This document shows positions 40,101 to 43,100 of a stretch of 55,188 bases of DNA, in pieces. Position 1 is the stretch's first letter. Every line of letters starts with the position of its first letter. This DNA is from a virus (Duplodnaviria; Heunggongvirae; Uroviricota; Caudoviricetes). Made by a program: the position numbers. The DNA lies in IMG/VR virus record IMGVR_UViG_2850802633_000006; one strand, given 5' to 3'.

Positions 40101-43100
40101 ATAAAATCACTCCTTCTCTTCTTTACCGTAGTGGAGTTGACCAATTTTGATAAGAGGGCGTCCCTGAGATTTGCGGTGTAGATTGGTATCGCGCAGAGAA
40201 TACACACAGCCACAATATTCCTGCTGATAGAATTTTTCGCGCTTGCTGATTTCAATCATACGGGACGAGCCGCCCTGCTTGCGCCAGTTATAATCCCAGT
40301 ACACCATGCCCGGATAATGCGCGACGGCTCGCCGCCCACAGTCGTTAACCTGCTGCATATTTTTCCAGCGTGAAATGCCCAGTGAACTGCTGATCACACT
40401 GAAACCATTTTCAGCGGCGTACAGCGCTGTCCGCTCAAAACGCATGTCAAAACACATGGTGCAACGGATCCCTCGTTCGGGCTCCCATTCCATTCCTTTG
40501 GCTCGTTCAAACCAGTTGTCTGTGTCGTAATCAGCATCAATAAACGGCACGCCGTGTTGTTCAGCAAAGCGAATATTCTCATCCTTACGAATTAAATACT
40601 CTTTCTGAGGATGAATGTTCGGGTTGTAGAAAAAGATGGTGTAGTCGATTCCCGAGGCCTGAAGCGCCTCCATCACCTCACCGGAACATGGAGCACAGCA
40701 AGAGTGCAGTAGTAGTTTGTTTGCCCCGTTTGGGAGCTCCAATTTGGGCCGTTTGAAATCAGCAACTGTCATAAATATGTTTATTGAGGTCATAAAAATA
40801 TCAAAGAGTGTAGCATTAGAACGGGGCTATCGGAAACAGATGTGTGACTGCTCCCCGCCCTTTCGGGCGGTCTCCTGATGATTTGAGGGTGCAGAAATCC
40901 CTCCGGTTAAGGATTAAATTTTTAACAGTGCTAAATTTAATTATTCAGTTCTGGATTTTGTCGCCCTGCGTATCCGCGCTTTCGCGTTACGCTCAATCTG
41001 TATCAGCTTTTCTATATTTCTCCGCCTTTCCTGTTCCTCCTGGCGCAATAGCCTTACATCATCTGCCAGTCTGGTTTCTCTTTTTGCCACAGAGAGCATC
41101 CAGTCAAACGGCTCCACAACCGCACCGCAGATTTTACAGCGGACCTGACGCTCTTTTTCGTCAACCCGTACAGAGGCGTGATGGCAATATGGTCTTTCCG
41201 ATGGCTTATAAAGAAAATTAACCTGATTACGAGGGTCATCCTCTTTTATCGGAAATAAAACGATATTGCTTAACTCATCTTCTGGTTTTATTTCCATGCT
41301 CCTCTCCTTTGATGCGAATGCCAGCGGTAATTGAAGCCTGATAGCTAATTTCATTCACAGTATCGCCTCCTGAAAATTACCCTGATAGAAAGCCAGTACA
41401 CGCTGCATAGCTTCGCTCTTCCGGCACTCGCGACAGATTATATTCAGGCGCCTGTCGTAGCGGCGTATTTCTCCGTCAGGTAATGACCAGATAAGGTCCG
41501 GATCAACAACAACCGGTTTCCTCACCTTTACTCTCGAGAGTTTTTTGCGGGCGCTTTGCCAGTCCTTGCGAGCCTGTTCAGACGGGAATAAGCCGTAGCC
41601 AGAATTATATACATCACCACTTGCGACCAGTTCTATGCATAAGCGACCGACAGACGCACGACTGATACCTGTTTCATCGGACAACTGCCGAATCGTGACC
41701 CGACCGTCCTGATGCACGAGTTCCACAATTCGCGTCTTCAGTTCTTCCCGCTGTTCGGGAGTAAAAGGTTTCGCCATAAATCCTCCTGAAACTACTTAAC
41801 AACCCTCGAATGGCTAACATTCGGACGCCAGCTCTCCCAGTTAAAATTAACCCAGCGCCCGCCTTTCATGACCATGCGATCCATCACCCGCTCGCCGAGC
41901 AATGTTTTCATCACCTCATAGTTCAGGTTTGTCAGCATCCCCACGCTGCGCATCGACGCTGTCCGGCGATCAACAATCTGGTGCAGCACCACCTGCTCGT
42001 TTTTCGTCTCGCGCTGAATGCCAATTTCATCAAGAACCAGCAGATCCACTTCGCACAGCTCCCGCAAAAATTTTTCGCCTGACTGCCCGTCGTCATAGCT
42101 GGCGTGCAGGGCGCTCATAACATCAGCCACGGTAACCACAATCACTGTCTGACCGTCTTTCAGCAGGCGATTCCCGATAGCTGCCGCTAAGTGATTCTAC
42201 CCGGTATCAGGTTTTCCGCTGAACGCAAAATTTGTACACCCGGTCATCAGTTCATCGGCGATGGATTTCGCCTGGCTTAACGCGTATCGCTGGCCGTCGT
42301 TCTGCACCTGGTAATTCGCAAACGAGCATTTACGGTGCAACGGCTGGATGCCTGAGCGATTCAGAATTTTTTCCACCCGCAACTGGCGATTCAGGCGGTT
42401 GATCTCCTCGCTACGTTTCTGGCCTTCAGCAAGTTGCCACTCGCGCCACTCCGCTACCGTTCTGAATGGGGCGGTTACATGTTGCGGGGTCAGTCGGCGG
42501 ATGCGTTCCAGAACGCCGCCTGTCGCAATATTTTTCATGGTCCGTTACCCCCTGAAGCCTGGCGGGATCGCACTGTCCGGCAACGAGACGGTGTTAACCT
42601 GTCGGAGCAACGTCTCAGGCCGAACACCTTTCGGCGCGAACAGGCCCTGGTATTCATTGGCGATGCTGTGTCGAATCACCTGCTCAGGTGTAAAACCCTG
42701 CTGACGGAATTTTTCCAGTTCCCGTATCGCCCTGCTCCGTTCGAATCGGTTTTCGCAATGCCTGTCTGAACCGGACCCACTCATGCCAGAGTGTTTCCGG
42801 CAACCAATCGGGCAGCTCAATAGCCTCCGGCTCGAATTTTTTAGACGCTCGTTTTTGGCGAGGGGGATTTAGGGGGAGATCAGTATTTAGATCTTCCTCT
42901 TCCTCTTCCTCTTCCACTGGTAACGCTTTTTGATCCGTTTGTGTAACGCTGGCAGCGTTACCTTTTCGTTTCAGTTCGCGTATTTTTGTTACTCGCTCGT
43001 TTGTAACCGCCCGTTTTTTAGAGCTTTTTCCGTTATGACGTTCAAAGTTAGGTAGAGAAAGCCCACCGTCATTTTCGACCAGCCATCCAACCTGAATTAA

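Follow-up and report, generated by a model that had tools for sequence, protein, structure and literature searches.

An intact gene of the epoxyqueuosine reductase family QueH in the early region of a defective, lambda-like prophage of Shigella/E. coli

The viral DNA analysed here (IMG/VR record IMGVR_UViG_2850802633_000006, Caudoviricetes; 55,188 nucleotides, in the following called the window) contains an intact open reading frame (ORF) of 228 amino acids on the minus strand at 40107–40793, which starts with ATG at 40793 and ends with the stop codon TGA at 40107–40109. A preliminary description, made from the sequence alone, had recognized a cysteine signature in this ORF and compared it to QueH, an enzyme of queuosine maturation. 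The protein matches the Pfam family PF02677 (QueH, formerly DUF208) with E = 1.9e-65 and 220.6 bits, the curated cut-off being 23.5 bits, and the match covers profile positions 1–174 of 175; a chance match is excluded, and the family is not an unrelated one. No NCBIfam model matched the protein, but the Prokaryotic Genome Annotation Pipeline (PGAP) and RefSeq nevertheless name the identical protein “epoxyqueuosine reductase QueH.” The same amino acid sequence is encoded in Shigella flexneri SFBU1023, and the window evidently is of Shigella type.

The limits of the ORF in the preliminary description are exact, except that translation probably does not begin at its first ATG. The N-termini of 80 genomic homologs align at Met8 of the ORF (ATG at 40772), the ATG at 40793 is not conserved upstream of this position (it is replaced by Ile in a copy from Enterobacter hormaechei), and the RefSeq product WP_012421537.1 has 221 amino acids. 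Because of this convergence, the true coding sequence (CDS) of queH most likely is 40107–40772 on the minus strand, corresponding to 221 amino acids from Met8 plus the stop codon. Older annotations start at an internal Met, residue 41 of the 228-amino acid ORF, and thus yield entries of 188–189 amino acids without the CC motif that are labeled “putative prophage protein” or of unknown function (e.g., locus L238, 6112–6681). Likewise, the profile of the PHROG family phrog_3217, described as “unknown function,” begins at residue 41, so that the CC motif is missed. Such internal start calls may explain why phage-oriented resources do not recognize the gene as queH.

Sequence and fold agree with the profile match. 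Residues 27–203 align with QueH of Thermotoga maritima (PDB 7lc5; phmmer E = 5.2e-22), to which the protein is 31–33% identical. An AlphaFold2 model based on 53 homologs (mean predicted local distance difference test score 82, predicted template modeling score 0.83) retrieved the five QueH entries of the PDB as its top five Foldseek matches, with template modeling (TM) scores of 0.84–0.87 and root mean square deviations of 2.3–2.6 Å; the best of them was 7lc5 (TM 0.86 on the target, 2.3 Å), and LarE and TtuA-type ATP-pyrophosphatase folds followed far behind. The protein shares the full-length domain, the fold and the six cysteines of the family (PF02677, COG1636; T. maritima structures 7LC5, 7LC7, and 9DEU), and the HxCC, RCxxC, and YCGC motifs, the FFYNPNI block and other family blocks are conserved. 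The signature singled out in the preliminary description corresponds to the CC-containing 12 residues 27–38 of the ORF, and the other conserved cysteines were also found as expected for QueH: C9, C10, C87, C90, C169, and C171 of T. maritima align to C25, C26, C104, C107, C187, and C189 (numbering of the 221-amino acid protein), all six being invariant in alignments of 27 and of 53 sequences. We take these residues to be the ligands of a [4Fe-4S] cluster and an adjacent iron, the metals having reportedly been assigned to individual cysteines by Li et al. 2021.

There are differences to the T. maritima enzyme. Firstly, the position of its Asp13 (CCAPD), which is altered in the D13N mutant (PDB 9DCO), is occupied by Cys in the window protein (CCAPC). 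Judged by the alignments, CCAPC represents the majority state of the family, as 103 of 107 diverse 50%-cluster representatives with the motif have Cys and three have Asp at this position, and Cys is also found in eight of nine divergent homologs from faecal and Staphylococcus records. Secondly, the window protein is extended at its C-terminus by a basic tail of approximately 25 residues, which is common to gammaproteobacterial QueH and absent from T. maritima. Other members of the family were reportedly validated by complementation of queG mutants or by in vitro assay (Zallot and coworkers in 2017). The ORF is a bona fide queH gene without disruption and belongs, as an ordinary member, to a known family that is already annotated.

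The region upstream of queH contains a putative extended −10 element, TGCTACACT (TGnTAnnnT; 40807–40815, minus strand), 43 nucleotides 5′ of the Met8 ATG. Phage-borne copies have it at −43 to −40, as do non-phage copies of Enterobacter, Scandinavium, Kluyvera, and one copy of Erwinia, while the sequence around it is unrelated between the phage and non-phage copies; the consensus TGCTA(C/G)A(C/A)T is kept at all 157 loci examined. It is this conservation across contexts that suggests a role as promoter element of queH. A generic scan for −35/−10 promoters and terminators around queH revealed nothing above the expectation from shuffled sequences and did not report TGCTACACT, which such a simple scan would miss because the paired −35 hexamer is weak (TTCCGA). 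The transcript is predicted to start near 40799–40802 and to have an AU-rich leader of approximately 28 nucleotides without a Shine–Dalgarno sequence. Further upstream, in the 147-nucleotide spacer between queH and a preceding ORF of 137 amino acids (40941–41354, minus strand), the sequence can be read as a GC-rich hairpin (CCGCCC-GAAA-GGGCGG; 40855–40870, minus strand) with no U-tract. The terminator scan did not report this hairpin, which may partly insulate queH from early transcription arriving from upstream. It is confined to the upstream variant that the window shares with the loci L001 and L004, whereas other prophages have a different upstream junction. The 137-amino acid ORF itself has a weak, sub-threshold match to a zinc ribbon (CxxC…CxxC, TFIIB-type; E = 2e-4) and, as only 24 of 80 prophage loci have it upstream of queH, does not belong to a fixed queH module.

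In accordance with the preliminary description, queH is part of a prophage early region. It has the replication genes DUF977/ydaV on one side and hok/sok on the other, and it shares the strand of the operon on the cro side. The best-preserved relative, locus L001 of FDAARGOS_944, is a prophage adjoining ybhA with the gene order int, xis, gam, recE, rha, cI-like, cro, ydaT, a hypothetical gene, ydaV (DnaC/IstB-like), DUF977, another hypothetical gene, queH, hokD, DUF1367, DUF1364, DUF1133, four tRNAs, holin, lysozyme, and terminase, which places queH in the nin-type region of the early-right operon. Among 80 prophage loci in IMG/VR, DUF977 was found upstream of queH in 75 and hok downstream in 66. 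The prophage in the window is a defective, chimeric, lambda-like remnant of Shigella/E. coli that is interrupted by insertion sequences (IS), and queH is nonetheless intact. In the window as well as in FDAARGOS_943, the terminase is disrupted by IS2 and recE by IS600, and ydaV is split. The latter is a single CDS of 248 amino acids in relatives but occurs in the window as two ORFs of 113 and 117 amino acids (41792–42145 and 42197–42538, minus strand), probably a pseudogene. The split adds to the evidence for a defective prophage with an undamaged queH.

The protein is 78–92% identical to QueH of Enterobacter, Scandinavium, Kluyvera, Erwinia, Serratia, Pectobacterium, Rahnella, Proteus, Providencia, and Photorhabdus, and the non-phage copies reside in conserved, genus-specific neighborhoods, in Serratia for example between yciI-like and tonB-like genes. 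Therefore, the phage copy is a captured, ordinary enterobacterial queH and not a diverged phage paralog. The window protein has the same length as its chromosomal counterparts in Enterobacterales and shares their C-terminal tail, and the closest of them also have the −10 element approximately 43 nucleotides upstream; unlike these housekeeping copies it is encoded by a prophage, with DUF977 and hok/sok as its neighbors in lambdoid Escherichia and Shigella prophages. Since TGCTACACT is found at the same distance in non-phage copies despite the unrelated surroundings, the captured gene seems to have arrived with its own promoter. All of the 84 prophage-borne copies are intact and 221 amino acids long, although these loci were retrieved by peptide patterns, a procedure that under-samples broken copies. 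They comprise 22 nucleotide and eight protein alleles with a mean synonymous divergence (dS) of 0.10 and a mean non-synonymous divergence (dN) of 0.0035 (dN/dS approximately 0.03), values that indicate strong purifying selection on the prophage-borne gene and that derive from the same pattern-based sample.

A megablast search found queH in 995 of 5,426 complete E. coli genomes (approximately 18%) with 90–99.9% identity, and all 20 of the matches listed carry the PGAP label for QueH. A single isolated phage has the gene, namely Escherichia phage HannyBb, in which it occupies the same position and is annotated as hypothetical. Further “phage” records with tblastn matches to QueH are unverified faecal scaffolds or large contigs of bacterial appearance and were not counted as phage-borne; this applies also to a 328-kb “Acinetobacter phage” record, in which the neighboring genes soxR, tadA, and cynX look bacterial. 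In IMG/VR, a scan for distant QueH with patterns from the alignment yielded 192 relatives, compared to 188 with the patterns of the window protein alone, and this type of scan detects only exact FFYNPNI or HSCCAPC peptides. A survey of viruses from 2019 found no homologs of QueA, QueG, or QueH in the deazaguanine-modifying viruses analyzed (PMC6884629), and our literature search retrieved no paper that discusses prophage queH in E. coli or Shigella. The phage context of the gene appears to be undescribed, whereas the identification of the gene adds nothing, as RefSeq already labels the protein QueH.

Queuosine (Q) occurs only in tRNAs with GUN anticodons, i.e., those for Asp, Asn, His, and Tyr, and is completed by the reduction of epoxyqueuosine (oQ), the product of QueA, by either QueG or QueH (PMC5372724). 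QueG requires cobalamin (PMC4646009), and QueH is its iron-dependent, non-orthologous replacement (PMC13443448, PMC6461909). The window carries an array of four tRNA genes (34048–34358, minus strand), to which the preliminary description had linked queH. This functional link could not be upheld because tRNA-Gly-UCC, -Thr-UGU, -Arg-UCU, and -Met/Ile-CAU are no Q substrates, none of them having a GUN anticodon. In the window, moreover, an IS1 junction separates the array from queH, and the array belongs to a segment whose replication and Q antiterminator module is a different one; in the intact relative L001, a near-identical array is located 2.6 kb from queH. For the first tRNA of the array (34282–34358, minus strand), ARAGORN predicted Met(CAT), while the RefSeq equivalent is tRNA-Ile, i.e., a lysidine-modified CAU reading AUA, an ambiguity commonly met with ileX-like tRNAs of phages.

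The queG gene was found in each of the 5,426 complete E. coli genomes. Consequently, on the evidence available for E. coli, the prophage queH is never the sole oQ reductase of its host but adds a second route, which would be independent of vitamin B12, as the resident QueG needs cobalamin and QueH does not. E. coli and Shigella are not known to synthesize the corrin ring and depend on imported B12. That the conversion of oQ to Q requires cobamide in E. coli and Salmonella was reportedly shown by Frey et al. in 1988 (cited in PMC4646009). According to the mechanism that we propose, a lambdoid phage of Escherichia/Shigella would have captured queH together with its promoter from an enterobacterial chromosome and retained it as self-transcribed cargo (a “moron”) within the nin-type region, with the replication genes on one side and hok/sok on the other. 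Its product would be a functional QueH, a small metalloenzyme of the adenine-nucleotide-alpha-hydrolase fold with a [4Fe-4S] cluster and an adjacent iron, that, needing no cobalamin, reduces the oQ34 of tRNA-Asp, -Asn, -His, and -Tyr to Q, thus providing B12-independent Q completion on host tRNAs for the lysogen and also for the phage during lytic growth. As regards a possible status as moron, queH is inserted between DUF977 and hok, is present in only a fraction of the E. coli genomes, and shares the putative promoter element TGCTACACT with chromosomal copies; the scan found no terminator. We consider it likely that queH is a captured housekeeping gene which, as self-transcribed cargo, uncouples the conversion of oQ to Q on host tRNAs from B12; activity in vivo, expression in the lysogen from the conserved −10 element, and a B12-sparing benefit are the parts of this scheme that we infer.

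Several observations weigh against this interpretation. No Shine–Dalgarno sequence was recognized on reading the sequence before the ATG at 40793 or that at 40772. No B12- or iron-responsive element was found upstream of queH, and Rfam models applied to 39300–41500 detected no cobalamin or preQ1 riboswitch 5′ of the gene, their only hit being the sok RNA downstream; therefore, nothing in the sequence ties the regulation of queH to cobalamin. The under-sampling of broken copies mentioned above is a caveat on the intactness and dN/dS values, and the selective benefit of the last step is itself uncertain, as it would require oQ and Q to differ in their effect on decoding.

A more far-reaching possibility is that the prophage queH acts as a lysogenic-conversion gene for the tRNA epitranscriptome, enabling the lysogen to maintain Q instead of oQ in B12-poor niches such as the cytosol of host cells, or after loss of BtuB. 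We regard this as tentative and on the whole rather doubtful. In S. flexneri, tgt is needed for virF to be translated efficiently (PMC5395182), and if such a conversion takes place, the translation of Q-dependent virulence regulators like this one could be affected. It would also make queH a phage-borne queuosine enzyme of the tRNA branch, a class reported absent by the 2019 survey (PMC6884629).

Alternatively, queH might primarily serve the phage. In this case it would be transcribed with the early-right operon (replication genes to Q), so that the Asp, Asn, His, and Tyr tRNAs of the host are fully Q-modified during the synthesis of the late proteins, a scenario that differs from the one preferred here only in the beneficiary and the timing of expression. 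The gene points in the direction of cro, ydaT, ydaV, DUF977, and Q and lies inside the nin-type region, the scan detected no terminator between queH and the upstream genes, and HannyBb, which was isolated and presumably is viable, has queH at the same position. With this orientation in the early operon, queH would also be transcribed during lytic growth. However, even in prophages unable to produce particles the gene is intact and subject to purifying selection, as in those of the window and FDAARGOS_943, and it has retained the promoter element shared with chromosomal copies; for these reasons a benefit to the lysogen is favored. In addition, one lytic cycle is short for the turnover of tRNAs and would leave a modification enzyme little time to matter. 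A role mainly in phage propagation thus seems unlikely to us.

The presence of queG in every complete E. coli genome, the occurrence of queH in only about 18% of them and the lack of any regulatory link to B12 would also be compatible with a neutral passenger, which was recently transduced, has no function in E. coli or Shigella and has not yet decayed. The ratio of dS (approximately 0.10) to dN (approximately 0.0035) and the absence of disrupted copies (0 of 84) would be unexpected for a neutral sequence, and queH survives in IS-eroded Shigella prophages in which its neighbors are pseudogenes, which makes this explanation very improbable.

The preliminary description had also considered a modification based on 7-deazaguanine, and indeed phages use preQ0-derived bases in their DNA (PMC6884629) and QueH handles a 7-deazaguanine nucleoside. 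All known systems of this kind require a transglycosylase of the DpdA/TGT family and usually FolE, QueD, QueE, and QueC. No DpdA/TGT-family gene is annotated in the near-identical prophages or was found by Pfam among the 20 window proteins scanned, and none of folE, queD, queE, or queC is annotated in L001, L239, or L240, which cover the homologous prophage segments, nor did any appear among these 20 proteins. As, furthermore, a DNA base of the epoxyqueuosine type has not been reported and the formation of oQ would additionally demand that QueA act on DNA, as the protein shows no phage-specific divergence from housekeeping QueH (78–92% identity), as PADLOC gave no hit for QueH and as the 2019 survey lists no QueA, QueG, or QueH in deazaguanine-modifying viruses, we deem a participation of queH in DNA modification or anti-restriction hardly credible. 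The reading of queH as part of a defense system was dropped for want of a PADLOC hit. The gene clusters of phages such as 9g and CAjan resemble the window in that a queuosine-pathway gene is carried by a phage genome, but they combine DpdA with FolE/QueD/QueE/QueC, with or without QueF/ArcS/Gat-QueC, and thus employ the early (preQ0) half of the pathway together with a DNA transglycosylase, whereas in the present case the pathway is represented solely by its last, tRNA-specific enzyme and a transglycosylase was not detected.

In comparison to the resident QueG (YjeS), the captured QueH is predicted to perform an identical reaction (oQ34 to Q34) with an identical set of four tRNAs as substrates, and both are present in the same cells (PMC4646009). 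The two enzymes differ in that QueG has an unrelated fold, contains cobalamin in addition to a [4Fe-4S] cluster and is encoded by a core gene, while QueH is accessory, phage-borne and cobalamin-independent. The mildly new aspect, which is an inference, is this strongly conserved, phage-delivered and B12-independent duplicate of a core tRNA modification step. Approximately 18% of the complete E. coli genomes, and the window, carry a cobalamin-independent back-up for an enzyme that depends on an imported vitamin. Should queH be active in lysogens, the oQ/Q status of tRNAs would vary among E. coli strains with prophage content and B12 supply, a point of relevance for work on queuosine-dependent translation and on Shigella virulence; the notion that phages possess nothing but the preQ0 half of the pathway would also need correction.

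Directly downstream of queH, the window contains a complete hok/mok/sok type I toxin–antitoxin module (39724–40049, minus strand), in which the Hok ORF ends at 39724 and the sok antitoxin RNA (RF01794, 117 bits) extends from 39874 to 40049; a promoter-like sequence, TTGATT-18-TAGAAT, is located at 40085–40056. The segment comprising hok/sok, queH, and DUF977 starts after an IS1 copy (38590–39358), at which the window is chimeric: the regions 39358–45316 and 34558–38764 are distinct lambdoid modules. The former represents the hok/sok-queH-DUF977-ydaV-cro-cI early region of the ybhA-adjacent prophage of the relatives. To the left of the junction are a lambda-like structural module, lysis genes, the tRNA array, the Q antiterminator (34558–34974), and a replication module of the DnaB/DnaC type (35480–38764) with a DnaB-like helicase (35480–36871), a DnaC/IstB-like loader (36868–37755), and an ORF of 335 amino acids. 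In FDAARGOS_943, these two segments are located approximately 60 kb apart.

Further insertion sequences in the window are an IS2 (45314–46656), a second IS1 (47983–48752), two inverted copies of IS600 (49167–50415 and 51342–52581), and additional IS3-family elements (approximately 24868–25951 and 28635–31461); they interrupt the early-left region (rha, recE) and the region between the structural and the lysis genes. At the left end of the window lies ybhB (1–477), a gene beside the lambda attachment site. Two genes for IpaH-family type III effector E3 ubiquitin ligases with LRR_TTSS and NEL domains bracket the window, one at 1060–2823 on the plus strand and the other at 53377–55188 on the minus strand, where it runs to the window end, an arrangement typical of ipaH-bearing prophage remnants of Shigella.

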